A stretch of DNA of 64,000 nucleotides from Escherichia coli (GCF_003019035.1 NZ_CP027447.1); one strand, 5' to 3'. Shown: positions 4,777 through 22,612, numbered from the stretch's first letter. The notes: a model not told the origin generated them from the sequence alone. Program-made: numbers and translations.

Positions 4777-6034
4777 CGCTTCTCCTCGCGTCAATCACTT
4801 CCATGACATGTGCGACCGTGTGGAACGAACCACACACCAGCACGGTATCTTCCGCTTTAGCGTCCGCCATTGCGGCATCCCATGCCTGCGCCACGCTATC
4901 AAATGATTTGCCGTTACCCAAATGCTCAAGCAGTTGTTCTGCCGTGGCACCGCGCGGCCCTTCCAGTGGCGCACAATACCAGTCATCAACCACGCTTTTC
5001 AACCAGGCCAGAGTTCCGGCAATATCTTTATCATGTAGCATACCGATAACCGCCAGCACGCGCCCGTTTTTCGGTAGCGCTTTCATACGCCCGGTGAGAT
5101 ATTCCGCCGCATGTGGATTATGCGCGACATCAAAAATAACGCGTGGCGACTCGCTCACAATCTGGAAACGTCCCGGCAAAATTGCGCTGGCAATCCCGTC
5201 GCGAACGGCATTTTCACTGACCTCCAGCCCGCTGGCACGCAGTGCCGCCAGCGCCGTTGCGGCATTCGGTTGCGGGACAAGCGGCAACGGCAGATTTTCC
5301 AGCGTGCCGTGAGCATCGCTAAACGTCCAGTCATGATCGGTGACGGAATAGTTCCACTCAACGCCCCGACGTTGTAACAGTGCACCTTTTTCCTGCGCCA
5401 CATCAGCAATGGTAGAAGGCATTTCCGGCTCACCGACAATTGCCGGTTTTTCGCTGCGGAAGATGCCTGCTTTCTCGCGACCAATACTTTCGCGATCTGG
5501 CCCCAGCCAGTCGGTATGATCCAGCGCAATGCTGGTTACTACCGCGACATCGGCATCGACAATATTGGTTGCGTCCAGACGACCGCCCAGCCCTACTTCC
5601 AGAATCACCACGTCAAGTTGTGCCTGTTTGAACAGCCACAACGCCGACAGCGTACCGTACTCGAAATAGGTCAGGGAAATATCACCGCGTGCCGATTCAA
5701 TCTCCGCAAAAGAGGCGGTGTGGGCCGATTCCGGCAATTCCTGGCCCTGCACACGAACGCGCTCGGTATAACGCACCAGATGCGGTGAACTGTAGACGCC
5801 CACTTTGTACCCTGCCGCCATCAGAATCGACTCCAGCGTACGGCAGGTGGTGCCTTTGCCATTCGTACCCGCAACGGTAAACACAAATGGCGCTGGTTTC
5901 AGAATGCCAAGACGCGCCGCGACCTGGCTCACGCGCTCAAGGCCGAGATCGATAGTTTTACTGTGCAGGTTTTCCAGATAAGAAAGCCACGAAGCCAGAG
6001 GCGACGCGGCTTGAGGAGTGCGTTTGATAATCAT
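4766..6034 (-). CDS. folC: Dihydrofolate synthase / folylpolyglutamate synthase
   Basis: 422-aa ORF, Mur ligase family P-loop (GTNGKGTT). Confidence 0.95.
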   Translation of the reverse strand: MIIKRTPQAASPLASWLSYLENLHSKTIDLGLERVSQVAARLGILKPAPFVFTVAGTNGKGTTCRTLESILMAAGYKVGVYSSPHLVRYTERVRVQGQELPESAHTASFAEIESARGDISLTYFEYGTLSALWLFKQAQLDVVILEVGLGGRLDATNIVDADVAVVTSIALDHTDWLGPDRESIGREKAGIFRSEKPAIVGEPEMPSTIADVAQEKGALLQRRGVEWNYSVTDHDWTFSDAHGTLENLPLPLVPQPNAATALAALRASGLEVSENAVRDGIASAILPGRFQIVSESPRVIFDVAHNPHAAEYLTGRMKALPKNGRVLAVIGMLHDKDIAGTLAWLKSVVDDWYCAPLEGPRGATAEQLLEHLGNGKSFDSVAQAWDAAMADAKAEDTVLVCGSFHTVAHVMEVIDARRSGGK

Positions 6035-15241: not shown

Positions 15242-15563
15242 GAAACCAGAACATGCACACACAAAAAAACCGCTTGCCATGCCGCAATCAGTCAGGTTAC
15301 ATTTCCGCTGCACCTCACAAAACGGGTGCCGGGTTTCGCAGCCTGCTGACTACACAAGCGCACAACCGCGCCAGCGGTTTTTTTGTGCGTACTGTATTGC
15401 CACGTTTTTTTCGCGTCAGAATTATGGCGGGGCGTACGGGGCCGACTTCGGTCGGGCCGGGTTCTTGTGTAGCCGGTACTGCGAACCTCGTACGTCTCGC
15501 CACCCACAGTTTCGCAGCTCTGGATGGTGAGTTTTCACAACTTACTACACAAGGGGCCACACC

Positions 15564-15866: not shown

Positions 15867-16256
15867 ATGATTGACGCTCATGACTTCACAAGATGGGTGC
15901 GCACACAGGACACCCGTCTGGCTCCCGTTCTTCAGGGATTATTTGATCTCTACATCCGTGGTCGTGACAACAGAGCACGCACCACAAAACCAGAGAATGC
16001 AGACACCCTTTATTTCACAGTAGACGACTGCTACCGCGTGGACTTCACACCACACGGGCTGGCGTTGCACTGCCTGACACCACACGGCGAATCACTACTG
16101 GCTTATTACGACTCCCCGGCCTCCGTATTTGCGGCAATGCTGGCGCATCGCACTGCTGGCGGGTGTGCCTCGCTGAGTGAATACACCGCTGAATTTAACC
16201 GCCTTTCCACCCTCTTCTCGCAGGAGTGGCAGCGCGTGACGGGATACCAGCCATGA
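15867..16256 (+). CDS. Hypothetical protein (early region)
   Basis: 129-aa ORF, stop overlaps gpA start. Confidence 0.5.
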   Translation: MIDAHDFTRWVRTQDTRLAPVLQGLFDLYIRGRDNRARTTKPENADTLYFTVDDCYRVDFTPHGLALHCLTPHGESLLAYYDSPASVFAAMLAHRTAGGCASLSEYTAEFNRLSTLFSQEWQRVTGYQP

Positions 16257-19093
16257 GTGAGTTTGCATGGAGCTGGAATGAACCACGGCCAGCCATTGAT
16301 CCAGCCAGATTTACGGAGCACAGGCAGGAAACTGAAACCGACCTGCAACGCGCCATCCGTTACTACCTTGAGGCGGACAAAAGGGCACAGAAAGAACAGG
16401 AAGCAAAGGAAGAAGCCTTTTTCGCACAATCCGCCATGGGTAAAAAACTCATGGCATCCCATGAGGAAGCCGGACAGCGTGAAAAGCTGGCACAGAGCAT
16501 CATCAGTAAGCGCCGGGCAACAGAACAAGACCCGGTAGCCCGTGCCTTTGCCACACTGAAGGCGCTTCCCGTTTATCTGCGAGAACCTCTGAGCCGCCAC
16601 CTCTCTTTCCTGCGCAAGAAGCAGGAAGCCGATCGTCAGAAAGGCAAAAAGAGCTGGCAGGCGGAACGCTATGCACGCGGAACCCTGCGCAAAATATTCG
16701 AACGTCTGGACCGCACCGACAGCCGCTGGCTGACACCGGGTTATCGCTCTCTTGCCGGACGCGAACGCCTGGACGATTTGCTTTACCTGCCGCAGCTCAA
16801 CAAACACCAGATACAGACGCTGGCCACCATGACGGCGGCGATGTTCAGCAGCACCTTCGAAAAACTCTGCGATGGCTTTGGCGCGACTGATGGCGAACTG
16901 ACCATGGATGTAACGCTGAAGGCGTATCAGATGCTGGCCCGCATGGCGTTACACCTGCACATCATGCCTCCACATTATGACGCACTGACAACAGATAAAG
17001 ACCGGAGGAACGAACCGGACACGGAGCTGCTGCCGGGCGCAATCCTTCGCCTGACCTGTGCGGAATGGTGGAAACGCAAACTGTGGCTGTTACGTTGCGA
17101 GTGGAGAGAAGAACAACTCCGCGCCGCCTGTCTGGTTTCCAGAAAAACATCACCCTATCTGAGCCAGGACGCGTTAAGCGAGTTTCGCGCACAGCGCGAG
17201 AAAACACGCGATTTCCTGAAAAGTTTCATGCTGGAAAATGAAGACGGGTTCACGATTGATCTCGAGACGGTGTATTACGCGGGAGTAAGTAACCCGGTTC
17301 ACCGTAAGGCAGAAATGATGGCCACCATGAAGGGACTGGAACTTCTGGCCGAAGCCCGTGGCGACAGAGCGGTGTTTCTGACTGTCACCTGCCCGTCAAA
17401 ATACCACGCAACAACGGAGAACGGTCATCCGAACCCCAAATGGAACGGGGCCACCATGCGCGACTCCAGCGATTACCTGGTTAACACGTTTTTTGCGGCG
17501 GTCCGCAAAAAACTGAACCGCGACGGCCTGCGCTGGTATGGCATCCGCACGGTGGAGCCTCACCATGACGGCACCGTGCACTGGCACATGATGGTCTTTG
17601 CTCATCCAGAAGAAATCGACAGCATCGTGGCCATCACCCGCGATATTGCCATTCAGGAAGACCGCCACGAGCTGGGCAATGATATTACTCCGCGCTTTAA
17701 GGTGGAGTATGTCGACGGCTCAAAAGGCACACCAACCAGCTACATCGCCACCTACATCGGAAAGAACCTGGACAGCCGCGCCGTGGATGGCATCGACCCG
17801 AAAACGGGCAAGCCACGCGTTGACCACGAAACCGGAAAATCAATGGCCGAGAGCGTGGAACGCGCCATCGGCTGGGCGCGCCTTCACCGGGTCCGCCAGT
17901 TCCAGTTCTTTGGTATCCCCTCCCGTCAGGTGTGGCGTGAACTGCGCCGCCTTGCCAGCCAGATGGCACGCAACCCGGAAGGCCCGCAACGGCTGAAGGA
18001 TGACGCAATGGACGCGGTACTCGCTGCCGCTGATGCCGGATGTTTTGCCACCTACATTGAGAAACAGGGTGGCGTACTTGTTCCACGCAAAGACTACCTG
18101 ATTCGCACCGCCTACGACCTCGCAGATGAGCTGAACGATTACGGCGAGCAGAGTGTACAGATTTACGGGATCTGGTCGCCGCTCATCGGGGAGTCTTCCC
18201 GCGTGTGCACGCACCCGGATAACTGGAAGCTGGTAAGACGTAAACCGGAAGCGGAAGACAGCGCCCGCGAAAATGGTTTTGACCTTCAGGGCGGCCCTGC
18301 CGCCCCTTGGACTCGTGGCAATAACTGTCCCCGTGTACAGGAAACGGACAACAACGGGACAGAACAGCCGGAAGAACGGCCAGCACCGTGGCCGCAGCTC
18401 CCTGACGGCGTTGAAGTGAACGAATGGATGCGCTCACTGAAACGGCACGAACGCCGGGCGCTGATGCGTTCGCTTCGTGACAAACAGGCAAAAAACAGCA
18501 GTGATGAAATGCAGAGCTGGACACAGAGCCGCAAACAGCAGCGGCCTTTGCCTGATAACCACGAATTACTCGCTAAAGAATGGCGGGAGTCTGCTGAATC
18601 TCTCGGCCTGCATATCGGTGAACAGCAGATGCAGCACCTGTTACGGGGCGGCAGTCTGTACGTTGACGGCAGCATCATTGCACCGCAGGGATTTGAAATT
18701 GTACGCAAACCGGATACCCGACCGGACAGCCGGATCACGCAGCTCTGGCAGCGCCTGAGCCGTAACCACGGCGTAAGCAGCACGGAGATCCGCCATAACC
18801 CGGTCGCCAGCTATCTGGAACAGCTGGCGGCATCAGACCCCGAAGCCGCCGCACGCCTGGCATCCACACTTCAGCAAGACCAGAACACCATGAAAACACC
18901 CGTTACCGTGCTTTCTGACATGCTGCGCGCCATCCGCGACGCAGAGCACGCACAGAGAATCAGTGAAACCACTGAACGCGCCCGCCGCAAAGCAGACCTG
19001 CTGCGGGGTGGCCTGACCATTGGAAACAAAAAACAGACAGAAACGGGATTCACAAATCCCGTAAATGAGCAAAAAACGCGCCGCGATATATGA
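16253..19093 (+). CDS. Replication initiation endonuclease (P2 gpA-like rolling-circle initiator)
   Basis: 946 aa from MSEFAWSW; conserved HHDGTVHWHMMVF region of the phage replication endonuclease family; longer than P2 gpA (C-terminal extension). Confidence 0.85.
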   Translation: MSEFAWSWNEPRPAIDPARFTEHRQETETDLQRAIRYYLEADKRAQKEQEAKEEAFFAQSAMGKKLMASHEEAGQREKLAQSIISKRRATEQDPVARAFATLKALPVYLREPLSRHLSFLRKKQEADRQKGKKSWQAERYARGTLRKIFERLDRTDSRWLTPGYRSLAGRERLDDLLYLPQLNKHQIQTLATMTAAMFSSTFEKLCDGFGATDGELTMDVTLKAYQMLARMALHLHIMPPHYDALTTDKDRRNEPDTELLPGAILRLTCAEWWKRKLWLLRCEWREEQLRAACLVSRKTSPYLSQDALSEFRAQREKTRDFLKSFMLENEDGFTIDLETVYYAGVSNPVHRKAEMMATMKGLELLAEARGDRAVFLTVTCPSKYHATTENGHPNPKWNGATMRDSSDYLVNTFFAAVRKKLNRDGLRWYGIRTVEPHHDGTVHWHMMVFAHPEEIDSIVAITRDIAIQEDRHELGNDITPRFKVEYVDGSKGTPTSYIATYIGKNLDSRAVDGIDPKTGKPRVDHETGKSMAESVERAIGWARLHRVRQFQFFGIPSRQVWRELRRLASQMARNPEGPQRLKDDAMDAVLAAADAGCFATYIEKQGGVLVPRKDYLIRTAYDLADELNDYGEQSVQIYGIWSPLIGESSRVCTHPDNWKLVRRKPEAEDSARENGFDLQGGPAAPWTRGNNCPRVQETDNNGTEQPEERPAPWPQLPDGVEVNEWMRSLKRHERRALMRSLRDKQAKNSSDEMQSWTQSRKQQRPLPDNHELLAKEWRESAESLGLHIGEQQMQHLLRGGSLYVDGSIIAPQGFEIVRKPDTRPDSRITQLWQRLSRNHGVSSTEIRHNPVASYLEQLAASDPEAAARLASTLQQDQNTMKTPVTVLSDMLRAIRDAEHAQRISETTERARRKADLLRGGLTIGNKKQTETGFTNPVNEQKTRRDI

Positions 19094-19138
19094 AGCGCGC
19101 ATAAAACAGGCAAAAACGGGATTTCAGAATCCCGTAAA
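19041..19138. repeat. Two copies of a 25-bp palindromic repeat (AAACGGGATTNNNNAATCCCGTAAA)
   Basis: copies at 19041-19065 (inside gpA 3' end) and 19114-19138 (just upstream of parM-like gene); each has a 7-bp perfect stem. Confidence 0.5.
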
Positions 19139-19169
19139 CGATTAATTAATCAACATAAGGAAAAGCGAC

Positions 19170-20129
19170 ATGAAAATTTGTATCGATGACGGCTCCACCA
19201 ACATCAAGCTGGCATGGACTGAGAACGGCGAACGCCGCAACGCCATCAGCCCGAACAGCTTCAAGTCGGAATGGTCTGCGCCGTTCGGTGGCACGCAGCC
19301 CGCGAACTACATGCTTGATGGCGTGCGCTATGGTTTTGATCCGGTCAGCGATCGCTTTGTCCAGACGACCGACACGCAATACCAGTACAGCGATGTGAAT
19401 GTCATTGCCATTCATCACGCGCTGGTCAAATCAGGCATCACACCACAGGAAGTGGATGTGGTTGTCACCCTGCCACTGAGCGAATATTTCGACACAAACG
19501 CACAGCCGGACATGGCCAACATCAACCGCAAAAAAGCAAACGTCATGCGCCCGGTGGCGTACCAGAACGGAAAAGCATTCACTATCCGTAACGTACGGGT
19601 TATGCCTGAATCCATTCCGGCTGGTTTTAAAGCACTGGCTGACATGAGTCCGTTTGAATCCCTGCTGATTGTGGATTTAGGCGGAACCACGCTGGATGTG
19701 GCAAAGGTTCAGGGACAACTGGCAGGTATCAGCCAGGTGTTTTGCGATCCACACGTAGGCGTTTCCCTGATGGCCGATGCCGTACTGTCGGTGATGGCCA
19801 CTAACGGTATGCGCACCAGTCACCACATCGCCAATACCATTATCGAACATCGCCATGATGAAGCCTGGCTGCGCCAGCACATCCACAATGACGCGCATTA
19901 CGCCAGCCTGATGGCGGTTATTCGTGAAAAGGAAGAAACACTGAAACAACGCGTGATCCGCGCGCTGGCGGTTTTTTCGGGTTACGGGCGGGTGATGGTT
20001 GTCGGTGGCGGGGCGGAGATTGTGGCACCCGCTATCCGCGAAGCCTGCGGAGTTAATGCGACTTTCATCGCGGACGGGGTGCCACAATTTGCTCTGGTTA
20101 ATGGGCTGTACGCAATGAACAAGGAGTAA
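19170..20129 (+). CDS. ParM/StbA-family actin-like segregation ATPase
   Basis: 319 aa; IDDGSTNIKL, ISPNSFK, YSDVNV.A.HHAL, VMPESIPAG, LIVDLGGTTLD, VMVVGGGAE closely parallel plasmid R1 ParM. Confidence 0.85.
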   Translation: MKICIDDGSTNIKLAWTENGERRNAISPNSFKSEWSAPFGGTQPANYMLDGVRYGFDPVSDRFVQTTDTQYQYSDVNVIAIHHALVKSGITPQEVDVVVTLPLSEYFDTNAQPDMANINRKKANVMRPVAYQNGKAFTIRNVRVMPESIPAGFKALADMSPFESLLIVDLGGTTLDVAKVQGQLAGISQVFCDPHVGVSLMADAVLSVMATNGMRTSHHIANTIIEHRHDEAWLRQHIHNDAHYASLMAVIREKEETLKQRVIRALAVFSGYGRVMVVGGGAEIVAPAIREACGVNATFIADGVPQFALVNGLYAMNKE

Positions 20130-20133
20130 ACCA

Positions 20134-20445
20134 ATGACGACACCAACCAGAAGAATAAGTTTCTATCTGAAGCCAGCTGCCGTCAAGAACGAAGGAGAAG
20201 CATGCGCCTGGCTGGACAGTCTTACACCAGAAGCCCGCAAAAGCGGCCAACGCGTGGCTTTTCTGGCCGGGCTGGCACTTCTGAAGACGAATCCGGCAGA
20301 GGCTTACCGACTGGCCGCATGGGCTGATGATGAGATGTTACCTGTGACACAAATCAGCTCAAAAAAGTTTGAAGCACAGTCTGCACCAGTGGCTAAGATA
20401 ACCAGCCAGATGGCTGGGAATATCCGGGCGTTATTTCCTGAGTAA
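20134..20445 (+). CDS. ParR/StbB-like small DNA-binding adaptor
   Basis: 103 aa directly downstream of the ParM-like gene; ISFYLKP and LDSLTPEARKSGQRVAFLAGLAL parallel R1 ParR N-terminus. Confidence 0.7.
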   Translation: MTTPTRRISFYLKPAAVKNEGEACAWLDSLTPEARKSGQRVAFLAGLALLKTNPAEAYRLAAWADDEMLPVTQISSKKFEAQSAPVAKITSQMAGNIRALFPE

Positions 20446-20573
20446 AAGCATCTGCGCGAAAAATGCTCACGTTTATAGAGACAGTATCATTCCATTTGGC
20501 ACACTTACTTCAATAATCGATCTGTTAAACAAATAGATTGTCTATTATCTATCGATTAAAACGATCAATTATC

Positions 20574-20601
20574 TTGACAGTAATGTGCCTTTTTGTAAGA
20601 T
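20574..20601 (+). promoter_or_regulatory. Sigma70-like promoter (TTGACA-16-TAAGAT) with GATC overlapping the -10
   Basis: near-consensus -35/-10; three GATC sites at 20519, 20563 and 20599. Confidence 0.45.
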
Positions 20602-20707
20602 CGTTCGCATTGTGAGCGACAAGATAATTGCGCGGCATTGTCCATGCAAAACGCCCCAATAGCAGCAACTATTGGGGCGTAAAACTCGGTCGGACTCACT
20701 TAACCTG

Positions 20708-20793
20708 ATATGCGTGCCTTCCGAAGTAAATCAAAATGTGCGTCGTATATTTTATTGCTTACACGCACCTCTGTAAAGGCACGCATATTTTTC
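20708..20793 (+). terminator. Long hairpin (13-bp perfect stem, nested 6-bp inner stem) followed by T-run; attenuator or terminator
   Basis: ATATGCGTGCCTT (20708-20720) pairs with AAGGCACGCATAT (20776-20788), then TTTTT; lies between the promoter and the GTG start at 20810. Confidence 0.4.
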
Positions 20794-20809
20794 CTATGAG
20801 GTAAATAAA

Positions 20810-21079
20810 GTGCGGGCTAAAACAGGTATTTGCAAGAACCCTCATCGTTATAATCCAACATTTCTGTCTCTCCCTGAATATCAAGGACAAGAAGGTCGGC
20901 ACAAATGCGCTGCCTGTGCTTTTGAGCTAGGCATAAAAGATGCGCTTGAAGGACGCGCTATGGCTCAGAATGATTTAGTTTTAGCTAACATTCCGTTTAG
21001 CCAGGCTGGAACTGTAAGGCACAGAGATGCCTATGAAGCATATGTTCGTGGTTGGCGATTAATACACAGCAACAATTGA
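20810..21079 (+). CDS. Hypothetical 89-aa Cys/His-containing protein (prophage cargo)
   Basis: GTG start with GAGG 8 nt upstream; CKNPHRY...HKCAACAF suggests metal binding; followed by a clean intrinsic terminator. Confidence 0.5.
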   Translation: MRAKTGICKNPHRYNPTFLSLPEYQGQEGRHKCAACAFELGIKDALEGRAMAQNDLVLANIPFSQAGTVRHRDAYEAYVRGWRLIHSNN

Positions 21080-21087
21080 TACTTTTG

Positions 21088-21112
21088 AAGCGCCGATAAG
21101 GCGCTTTTTTTG
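21088..21112 (+). terminator. Rho-independent terminator
   Basis: AAGCGCC-loop-GGCGCTT stem followed by TTTTTTT directly after stop at 21079. Confidence 0.6.
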
Positions 21113-21565
21113 TTTGCACGATAGTGCACAAGTTTGCACAATTTTTTTGAACGACTTTTTGTACTTCCGGCCCGCGTGGTGGCTGGATCCGTCAAGGATC
21201 CGTACGTGCACAAAAATACGCGTTTTTTCTGCGCGCAGGTGACGGGGGAACAGCCCGCGTTTCAGGGGGTAAATAGCATTCCCTTAACGATGTCGCAGCG
21301 ACATGACAGAATGGCCGTATTTCTCACGCTGAGCGTGAAAAATACGTGAGGGATTCTGCTTTGATGGGGTGAAAGGTAAGGCCGTCAAAATCGCACTGAG
21401 GCGGCGAGAACATGCAGTCAGCGCAGTGGGATTGCGTAAGAGTCTGACCGTCGATGATGGCAATAAGCAGGAAAGCGTCGTGAAATTATCTGACTGATAC
21501 AGGAGCTGGAGAGTCGGGGCATAAATTTTTTATGCCCCGGCGAAGCAGCAGACAAGCGAAGCGCG

Positions 21566-22612
21566 TCAGGATGTGGGCTGGGTATCTAACAGTGCGTAAG
21601 GGTTAAAGCGGATCACCTCTTCGCCAAGCCAGTCATTGATGTGCTTCATGGCCTCCATGACGGGCATCAGCTCGTTAATTGCGTAAACCCGCGCGGCCTT
21701 CTCCACATCACCAAACGCACTTTTTTCGCCCGGCATCGCCCCCATCAGTTGCGGCGGAACGCGGTGCGCAGCCAGCACATCATCACGGGATGCCGCCTTA
21801 ACATTCATGAACTCATCTTTTGCGGTGATCTGCTGGAACGGCAAAATTTGCACCCCCTCTTTGCCCCCGTTGGGCGCATGAATGAGCACGTTTTTAAACG
21901 CACCACCACCACGTGCCCCCTGTAGCGTTTCTTTCAGGGAGTCCATGCTTTCGCGGTTTACCTGCGCTGCACCGATGTAGATGATGCACCCGGCGTGGGA
22001 TCCGTTGTCGTAGTACAGTTTTCTGAACATGTCCGCTGAATGAGAAAGGCTGGCCGAGAGTAATGCGCCAAGATATTCCGGCATGCCGTAGATTTCCTGG
22101 TTAATATCCGGATTCATCAGGTGGCACACTTTGCCAGGACGAAACTGGAACGCGTCCTTGCCATCCTGCACATACCACCATGATTCAAGATCGCTTCCGC
22201 GTCGCATGTATTTCGCCAGGGCGTGCCGTAATTTAAGCGGTTCGCCGAGCATATTGCTTCGAAGCTCAAGGAATGCGTTACCGAACACAAACCAGTCCAG
22301 CGCCAGCGCCGAGAAATCCTGCCGGGAAAGCAGCGGGTGCGGGATGTAGCAACCGAGTAATACATTGCGCTTAAAGTAAAGCGCAGACTGATGCCAGGAC
22401 GTTTGCCGGGCAGCTCTTGCCAGACCGTACCAGTCCACCGGGGTTTCATACCACCGCCCGTTATCAGCACAGTACATATTGTCCAGCAGGTCATGCCCGG
22501 TCAGGCGATAAGGACCATCAAATGTGAATGCACTGAGCGATGATTCTTTCCTGAGCGCATCAGCGAGATCAATGCGTGAACTCATGCGCACTTTTTTATT
22601 TTTTCTGCTCAT
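21566..22612 (-). CDS. Portal protein (P2 gpQ-like)
   Basis: 348 aa; position and size as P2 Q, co-oriented and coupled with terminase gene. Confidence 0.9.
   Translation of the reverse strand: MSRKNKKVRMSSRIDLADALRKESSLSAFTFDGPYRLTGHDLLDNMYCADNGRWYETPVDWYGLARAARQTSWHQSALYFKRNVLLGCYIPHPLLSRQDFSALALDWFVFGNAFLELRSNMLGEPLKLRHALAKYMRRGSDLESWWYVQDGKDAFQFRPGKVCHLMNPDINQEIYGMPEYLGALLSASLSHSADMFRKLYYDNGSHAGCIIYIGAAQVNRESMDSLKETLQGARGGGAFKNVLIHAPNGGKEGVQILPFQQITAKDEFMNVKAASRDDVLAAHRVPPQLMGAMPGEKSAFGDVEKAARVYAINELMPVMEAMKHINDWLGEEVIRFNPYALLDTQPTS

Follow-up and report, generated by a model that had tools for sequence, protein, structure and literature searches.

The 64,000-nucleotide stretch of Escherichia coli DNA analysed here (GCF_003019035.1, NZ_CP027447.1; the window) contains a P2-like prophage in which two genes for an actin-like partition system of the plasmid R1 type, parM (19170–20129, + strand) and parR (20134–20445, + strand), lie between the replicase gene and the portal gene. 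The gene directly upstream of parM is a 955-residue open reading frame (ORF) on the + strand (16226–19093, stop codon 19091–19093; start placed at 16268 by PGAP) encoding a gpA-type rolling-circle replication endonuclease, with a match to PHROG 91, 'nicking at origin of replication', at 8.5e-279. The far boundary of this gpA-Q interval is the gpQ homologue (21566–22612, − strand), recovered in our ORF list and named 'phage portal protein' by PGAP. In a genome that is 100% identical to the window over 18900–20700, PGAP names the gpA-type gene 'replication endonuclease' and the prophage is integrated beside pheL/pheA. The element runs from the integrase through a C/Cox-type switch, the gpA-type endonuclease, parM and parR to a stretch of ~1.1 kb, followed by the opposite-strand portal and terminase genes and the late genes, and its 18900–20700 segment has 95–98% DNA identity to phages P88, 520873, 503458, PhiR44_2, Chuche, P884B11 and the Citrobacter phage PhiSM, the last of which forms plaques on E. 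coli K-12 (PMC6456863). The prophage is P88-like (genus Xuanwuvirus, family Peduoviridae), a P2-like temperate phage, and the placement of the pair between replicase and portal genes, proposed in an earlier reading of this DNA made without database searches (the sequence-only reading), is confirmed.

The first gene product is an R1-type actin-like partition ATPase of 319 residues. A phmmer search of PDB sequences matched residues 2–316, effectively its full length, to 1mwk_A (E=1.3e-92), Pfam identifies both StbA_N (9.5e-82) and the ParM C-terminal domain (9.8e-69), and the AlphaFold2 model superposes best on 4A62_A, the structure of R1 ParM with the ParR C-terminal peptide, with a root-mean-square deviation of 1.4 Å, a target-normalised template modelling score of 0.96 and 46% identity. 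The nucleotide-binding motifs DDGS, PESIPAG, DLGGTTLD and GGGAE are kept in 84–85 of 85 loci (a set comprising the window, phage and E. coli records and 80 IMG/VR contigs), so the actin-fold ATPase expected of a type II (ParMRC) system is present with its nucleotide-binding motifs intact. The second component of such a system, a small adaptor with a ribbon-helix-helix fold whose gene comes next in the operon, is also found: parR starts 4 nt past the end of parM, and its 103-residue product matches Plasmid_stab_B (PF10784, the R1 StbB/ParR family) at 1.3e-23 and PHROG 2515 at 2.3e-59; PHROG 2515 and the ParM family, PHROG 691, are both named 'partition protein'. ParR gave no match to PDB sequences; the R1 ParR peptide in 4A62 is presumably shorter than the 20-residue cut-off of that search. 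Searches of NCBIfam were uninformative, with sub-threshold matches only for ParM (PRTRC_D, 22 bits; PRK13917, 19 bits) and none for ParR. The Pfam and PDB sequence searches nevertheless settle the homology of the pair, and the parallels to R1 ParM and ParR drawn in the sequence-only reading prove to reflect true homologues.

Alignment with R1 ParR extends across the N-terminal strand and both helices of the DNA-binding domain, and the phage protein divides into three zones that differ in polymorphism. The N-terminal strand, MTTPTRRISFYLKP, is unchanged in 45 of 46 distinct ParR sequences, and the head as a whole (strand and two helices, residues 1–62) has a ratio of non-synonymous to synonymous polymorphism (pN/pS) of 0.13. 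A hypervariable linker follows (approximately residues 63–90, pN/pS 0.70) and leads to a conserved C-terminal motif, NI(R/Q)x(L/F)FP, for which pN/pS is 0.04 in the allele class of the window. This tail aligns with the R1 C-terminus, ...KKNAMKLIN, with Asn96 invariant; in 4A62 it is through its C-terminal peptide that R1 ParR binds ParM. The phage-borne ParRs of five genera all end N[AI]xxLFPx, while the three ParRs of plasmids or integrative and conjugative elements (ICEs) that we compared, R1 included, do not. When ParM was modelled as a fusion to ParR residues 82–103 through a 30-residue Gly/Ser linker, the tail formed a helix (fusion residues 354–368) with predicted local distance difference test (pLDDT) values of 62–83, the linker being disordered (pLDDT ~35); this model, whose output contains no contacts, supports but does not prove a ParR tail docked on ParM. 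The protein thus appears, from its sequence, to keep a DNA-binding head and a putative ParM-binding tail. ParR also has two deeply separated allele classes, distinct from about codon 18 onwards, next to a ParM that is ~98% conserved; the class of the window occurs in ~710 E. coli genomes and the other in roughly 590.

A DNA search with parMR alone recovered the pair in 1,302 of 5,426 complete E. coli genomes, at 1,450 places, 1,448 of them in chromosomes and 2 in plasmids. A matching gpA segment, at ≥80% coverage, is present in 1,319 genomes, so nearly every prophage with this replicase type has parM. The gene is intact in all 85 loci of our set, which comprise 69 distinct DNA sequences and 49 distinct proteins, with a pN/pS of 0.067, and parR is intact wherever the sequence suffices to judge it; both genes are under strong purifying selection and are maintained by it. 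Immediately past the pair the picture changes. Among 76 loci, the 400 nt that follow the parR stop codon form at least 20 unrelated clusters, showing that the variable hotspot starts past parR, and the window ceases to resemble P88 precisely at this stop codon. Rather than variable cargo, the pair is a fixed module of the P88-like lineage core: it has neither the variable presence among close phages nor the likeness to defence proteins that characterise the anti-phage cargo of the gpA-Q interval. The sequence-only reading, which had placed the pair in the cargo gap of the prophage, is not supported on this point; the variability begins downstream of parR.

Two repeats lie upstream of parM. Unit 1 (19027–19068), found by repeat and pattern searches, contains the core palindrome ACGGGATT-CACA-AATCCCGT at 19043–19062, and unit 2 (19100–19141), 73 bp away, contains ACGGGATT-TCAG-AATCCCGT at 19116–19135, ending 34 nt before the parM start codon. 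Both palindromes are hyphenated inverted repeats of 20 bp, ACGGGATT-N4-AATCCCGT (8-4-8), each set within a 42-nt direct repeat unit, and the two units are 81% identical. The sequence-only reading had described two 25-bp palindromes (19041–19065 and 19114–19138) immediately upstream of the operon; the repeats are real, but they are shorter and hyphenated, and the first copy is not intergenic, lying instead inside the last codons of the replicase gene. Allowing up to three mismatches, the palindrome motif occurs at these two sites only in the window, against 0.27 expected by chance, and two or more matches were seen in 5 of 100 shuffles.

Since divergence within E. coli is too low to decide whether these sites are constrained, we turned to a comparison across genera. 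Pairs of GGG-N10-CCC sites are found upstream of parM in E. coli, Hafnia and Plesiomonas with spacings of 73, 73 and 72 bp, respectively, and the second site is centred ~45–52 nt before the parM start in all three, in flanks that are otherwise unrelated. In Plesiomonas the repeat was also found independently, as a 26-nt direct repeat with 72-bp spacing. One or two extra ORFs separate gpA from parM in Hafnia and Enterobacter, and there the repeats remain adjoining parM, which favours their assignment to the par module over one to the replicase. The suggestion that the repeats could be a parC-like centromere is thereby made credible, the two-site layout recurring beside parM in distant relatives. 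Two further features of this region were seen. At one IMG/VR locus the 73-bp interval between the units is deleted (the equivalent of 19040–19115), leaving a single hybrid site and an intact parM; this could be a natural variant for comparison with two-site phages. A conserved TTAATCAA(A/C)..TAAGG stretch just 5' of the parM start is shared by E. coli (19141–19160), Hafnia and Plesiomonas (5975–5992 and 5972–5992 in those two loci), and may contribute to ribosome binding or be another site bound by a protein.

Consensus scans of the interval between the upstream gene and parM in five lineages revealed neither a sigma-70-type promoter able to drive parM nor a plus-strand terminator. Promoter-like matches in Serratia and Enterobacter overlap the start codon and are unusable, and a dedicated parMR promoter was rejected as nothing usable emerged from these scans. 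A GC-rich hairpin lies directly 3' of parR in many E. coli loci. On the simplest reading, parMR forms the distal end of the early replication operon, and its expression looks linked to that of the replicase.

How far the module extends beyond E. coli was addressed by searching 5.8 billion proteins with ParM. Identity falls from 91–100% within the E. coli clade straight to 62%, the next relatives being those of Plesiomonas shigelloides (62%), Hafnia (62%), Serratia (58%) and Enterobacter (54%), and in each of these four genera parM-parR belongs to a P2-like prophage, with a Phage_GPA gene on one side and the portal and terminase genes on the other. At ~50% identity the two relatives whose context was checked are of another kind, one in Dickeya beside tra genes (ICE-like) and one in Mangrovibacter beside Rep3/ParAB (an integrated plasmid). 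In a neighbour-joining tree the phage-borne ParMs stand apart from plasmid ParMs, including that of R1. E. coli, Hafnia and Plesiomonas group together in 100 of 100 bootstrap replicates, as do Serratia and Enterobacter. The two groups join in only 41 of 100, so that a single acquisition is not claimed and a single origin of all phage-borne ParMs is not upheld; one or two ancient acquisitions are both possible from these sequences, and retention at the gpA-portal position is ancient.

The pair itself is already on record. PGAP labels its products 'plasmid segregation protein ParM' and 'plasmid partitioning/stability family protein'. In their survey of the gpA-gpQ interval in E. coli P2-like prophages, Rousset et al. 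2022 noted that about a quarter of P2-like phages have in this interval a 'putative plasmid partitioning system' made up of StbA and Plasmid_stab_B, gave it one sentence without analysis, suggested a plasmid-type lifestyle, and listed the StbA and Plasmid_stab_B arrangements in their supplementary tables (PMC9122126). Their system, also present in P88, PhiSM, 520873 and others, is the same as ours, with nothing different in kind. The belief of the sequence-only reading that the arrangement was undescribed was therefore wrong, the pair being in PGAP, in PHROGs and in that survey. What is added here is the linkage to the lineage, the selection data, the candidate sites, the architecture of ParR and the relatives in other genera, together with the inferred linkage to the replicase operon and a control, described below, showing that circular assemblies do not depend on ParMR.

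The closest well-characterised system is ParMRC (parA/stb) of plasmid R1. The order of repeats, parM and parR is shared, the ParM proteins are 46–50% identical with the same fold and nucleotide-binding motifs, and the ParR proteins belong to one Pfam family, with an N-terminal ribbon-helix-helix and an aligned C-terminal motif. The systems differ in their carriers, a low-copy plasmid for R1 and an integrating tailed phage for the pair described here, and in ParR, which has 117 residues in R1 and 103 in the phage, where the R1 middle segment is missing. They also differ in the centromere: R1 parC consists of ten 11-bp direct iterons flanking the promoter, whereas the phage candidate is two palindromes 73 bp apart, with no promoter of its own recognised. 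The best functional analogy is srpMRC of the SXT/R391 ICEs, which was shown by experiment to stabilise the excised, replicating form and to reduce loss of the element (Carraro et al. 2015, PMC4489591). Like the present pair, srpMRC is a type II module on a normally integrated element whose excised circle is replicated by a rolling-circle-type initiator, and the P88-like prophage, which unites integrase, gpA and parMR in one element, falls in this functional class. It differs in being only distantly related to R1 ParMR, to which the phage pair is close, in belonging to a conjugative element and not a virus, and in having a function known from experiment. A phage precedent is AlpAC, with alpS, of the Corynebacterium prophage CGP3. 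Its induction comes soon after excision, and the circular phage DNA requires it in order to replicate efficiently (Donovan et al. 2015, PMC4446434). AlpAC belongs to another actin-like family and a Gram-positive host, has its adaptor gene first, and serves replication and positioning rather than classical segregation.

We consider it probable, from the composition and conservation of the locus, that the pair is a working type II (ParMRC-like) partition module in the core of the P88-like lineage, and that it acts on circular, replicating phage DNA. In such a module ParR dimers would bind the two palindromic sites just 5' of parM, the ParR C-terminal tail would capture the ends of ATP-dependent ParM filaments, and the growing filaments would push copies of the phage DNA apart. 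As an integrated prophage segregates with the chromosome, the substrate would have to be a circular extrachromosomal form. P2-type replication yields monomeric circles, and the substrate would be the phage genome after infection but before integration, and again after excision, while gpA produces such circles by rolling-circle replication. As the apparent last genes of the early replication operon, parM and parR would be expressed during this extrachromosomal replication. The benefit would be that replicating circles are spread through the cell and into both daughters, lowering loss of the phage in dividing cells, whether during lysogenisation, delayed lysis or transient excision, and/or organising replication in space.

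More tentatively, and by analogy with the systems above, P88-like and related P2-like phages of at least five enterobacterial genera may apply an actin-like motor to their rolling-circle products and pass through a short-lived, actively partitioned episomal phase that would hand the phage to both daughters of an infected or excising cell, or may use the module for AlpAC-like spatial organisation or for stimulation of gpA; we regard this wider proposal as possible though doubtful. Stimulation of the conjugative relaxase TraI by R1 ParM and ParR has been reported (PMC4949242), and a further possibility is that ParMR might likewise stimulate the neighbouring gpA nickase. The module is found in about one of four complete E. 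coli genomes, in a phage that integrates yet has an actin-like partition machine, and should the wider proposal hold, integrating tailed phages of Gram-negative bacteria would for the first time be shown to rely on a ParMRC machine. Were the module to act on a transient circle, the principle seen in ICEs, that integrated elements manage their excised state, would extend to tailed phages, and would help explain the success of the P88-like lineage.

Several observations weigh against a partition module acting on phage circles. Phages P2 and 186 do well without one, and regulation of the P2 type, if it applies here, would shut the early operon on the lysogenic path and so limit ParMR before integration. 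Co-transcription with gpA is itself deduced from the absence of consensus signals. A tblastn search of 50,697 phage records found ParM only in P88-like phages and in the P1-like phage D6, the one other phage record with an R1-type (StbA-type) ParM, at 48% identity. D6 is 91 kb long, and P1-like phages persist as plasmids for which partition is obligatory, whereas P88-like phages integrate. At the candidate centromere there are two ParR-type sites only, and these might serve just as an operator. Because the GGG-N10-CCC pattern was framed with all three genera already in view, chance estimates from its background density of ~1–2 per 10 kb are only indicative. Within E. coli the palindrome arms are not conserved above neutral expectation, with a diversity of 0.060 against 0.061 at 4-fold degenerate sites, although the CGGGA/TCCCG cores are less diverse (0.035) and the loops more so (0.18). 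The layout is not the same in Serratia and Enterobacter, where a long inverted repeat has GGGAAC at its ends; the ParR strand of these two genera reads NRKISFYLKP in place of TRR(I/V)SFYL, a weak hint that strand and site layout may co-vary. Finally, our literature searches on ParM in P2-like phages, P88, Xuanwuvirus, PhiSM and CP-933T returned no functional study. The sequence-only reading had held that the role could not be told from sequence, which was right, and had envisaged that the pair might turn out to be a common, characterised component of P2-like phages with a known role: it is common and already reported, and no paper testing its role was found.

The same genes could serve a different lifestyle, with P88-like phages persisting for long periods as low-copy plasmids in a phage-plasmid or carrier state, in line with the speculation published by Rousset et al. 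2022 (PMC9122126). In PLSDB, the circular 'plasmid' NZ_CP148288.1 of E. coli strain Z1323PEC0009 (34,461 bp) consists of an entire P88-like genome, joined at attP and with parMR intact. The stability loci of plasmid R1 are parMRC and hok/sok, and the prophage, which has a Hok/Gef-family gene in addition to parMR, holds relatives of both. We nonetheless consider this lifestyle unlikely. In complete E. coli genomes, all but two of the 1,450 places with parMR lie in the chromosome, an integrase is retained by every complete element that we inspected, the present one is integrated next to pheL/pheA, and even the phage of NZ_CP148288.1 is found integrated in another strain, so that these phages are not extrachromosomal rather than integrated in the manner of the P1, N15, SSU5 and D6 types. 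Furthermore, two circular P2-like 'plasmids', pENTAS02 (NC_015969.1, 32.6 kb) and pOSUCZ140_3 (NZ_CP066556.1, 35.4 kb), are negative for both ParM and ParR by tblastn, and ParMR is hence not required for such circular plasmid records, which may be assemblies of replicating or excised circles. Annotation shows no plasmid-type replicon, and the gpA-type endonuclease, whose P2 homologue belongs to the lytic early operon, is the sole replication initiator named. A decaying plasmid remnant without current function would agree with an integrated prophage that has no obvious need for partition, but this reading is contradicted by the selection data (the intact parM of every locus and the low pN/pS of parM, ParR head and ParR tail) and by retention of the pair at one position in five genera at 54–62% identity, and we hold it to be extremely unlikely.

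The location of the pair in the gpA-Q interval, the site of old and tin in P2 and of many defence systems, raises the alternative of competition, in which hotspot cargo would exclude other phages or destabilise rivals with a related centromere (incompatibility), and the deep allele classes and hypervariable linker of ParR could fit an arms race. This we judge very unlikely. A defence role, which the sequence-only reading had entertained as a repurposed exclusion function, left no sign: PADLOC gave no match for either protein, and the role was rejected. The pair is lineage-fixed, with the hotspot starting after it, and is not among the systems that Rousset et al. describe testing (PMC9122126). 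As for incompatibility, the nearest true plasmid parM has ~66% DNA identity, the checked plasmid and ICE relatives share ~50% protein identity, and the strand with which ParR would read DNA is nearly invariant, without diversification. A narrower objection concerns the palindromes, which might be minus-strand intrinsic terminators or ori/ter signals of the replicase, with ParR binding elsewhere or acting only as a regulator. On the minus strand both E. coli palindromes do resemble weak terminators, a hairpin followed by a T run, and unit 1 lies inside gpA, the P2 origin being within gene A. The corresponding sites in Hafnia and Plesiomonas are not terminator-like on either strand, however, and the terminator reading was rejected for this reason. 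No minus-strand gene ends nearby, the end of the portal operon being 2.4 kb away; in Hafnia and Enterobacter the repeats adjoin parM at one or two ORFs from gpA, and the 72–73-bp spacing and the distance to the parM start are conserved in three genera. A non-centromeric role of the palindromes is, on this evidence, distinctly unlikely.

Past the par module, the variable hotspot of this prophage, delimited by the downstream clusters and by the end of P88 similarity, occupies 20446–21565; judging by position and by the arrangement in P2 it is presumably also the site of cos. Its actual cargo is a + strand ORF of 89 residues (20810–21079) that matches PHROG 3941, a family without assigned function, and has no significant Pfam and no PADLOC match. 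Promoter and terminator scans placed a sigma-70-like site at 20574–20601 and a terminator-like site at 21087–21107, and a perfect 11-bp inverted repeat (20566–20576 and 20620–20630) brackets the promoter-like site.

The Hok/Gef-family gene is a 46-residue ORF (45452–45592, + strand) between ogr (45000–45260) and the com and DNA-methyltransferase genes. An Rfam scan of 42000–46000 gave no match at the gathering threshold. This hok region is common to P88, Chuche, PhiSM, PhiR44_2 and P884B11, and a further 175 phage records, including many Stx-converting phages, contain it at 80–90% identity. In the early region of the prophage, in an interval flanked by a truncated 'ash family' ORF and the gene for a 'derepression protein', Rfam matches were obtained for the Hfq-binding small RNA isrK (15310–15384, + strand, 64 bits) and for C4 antisense RNA (15420–15507, + strand, 83 bits), and from its sequence this region looks like a P1/P7/P4-style C4-RNA antirepressor switch within a P2-like phage.

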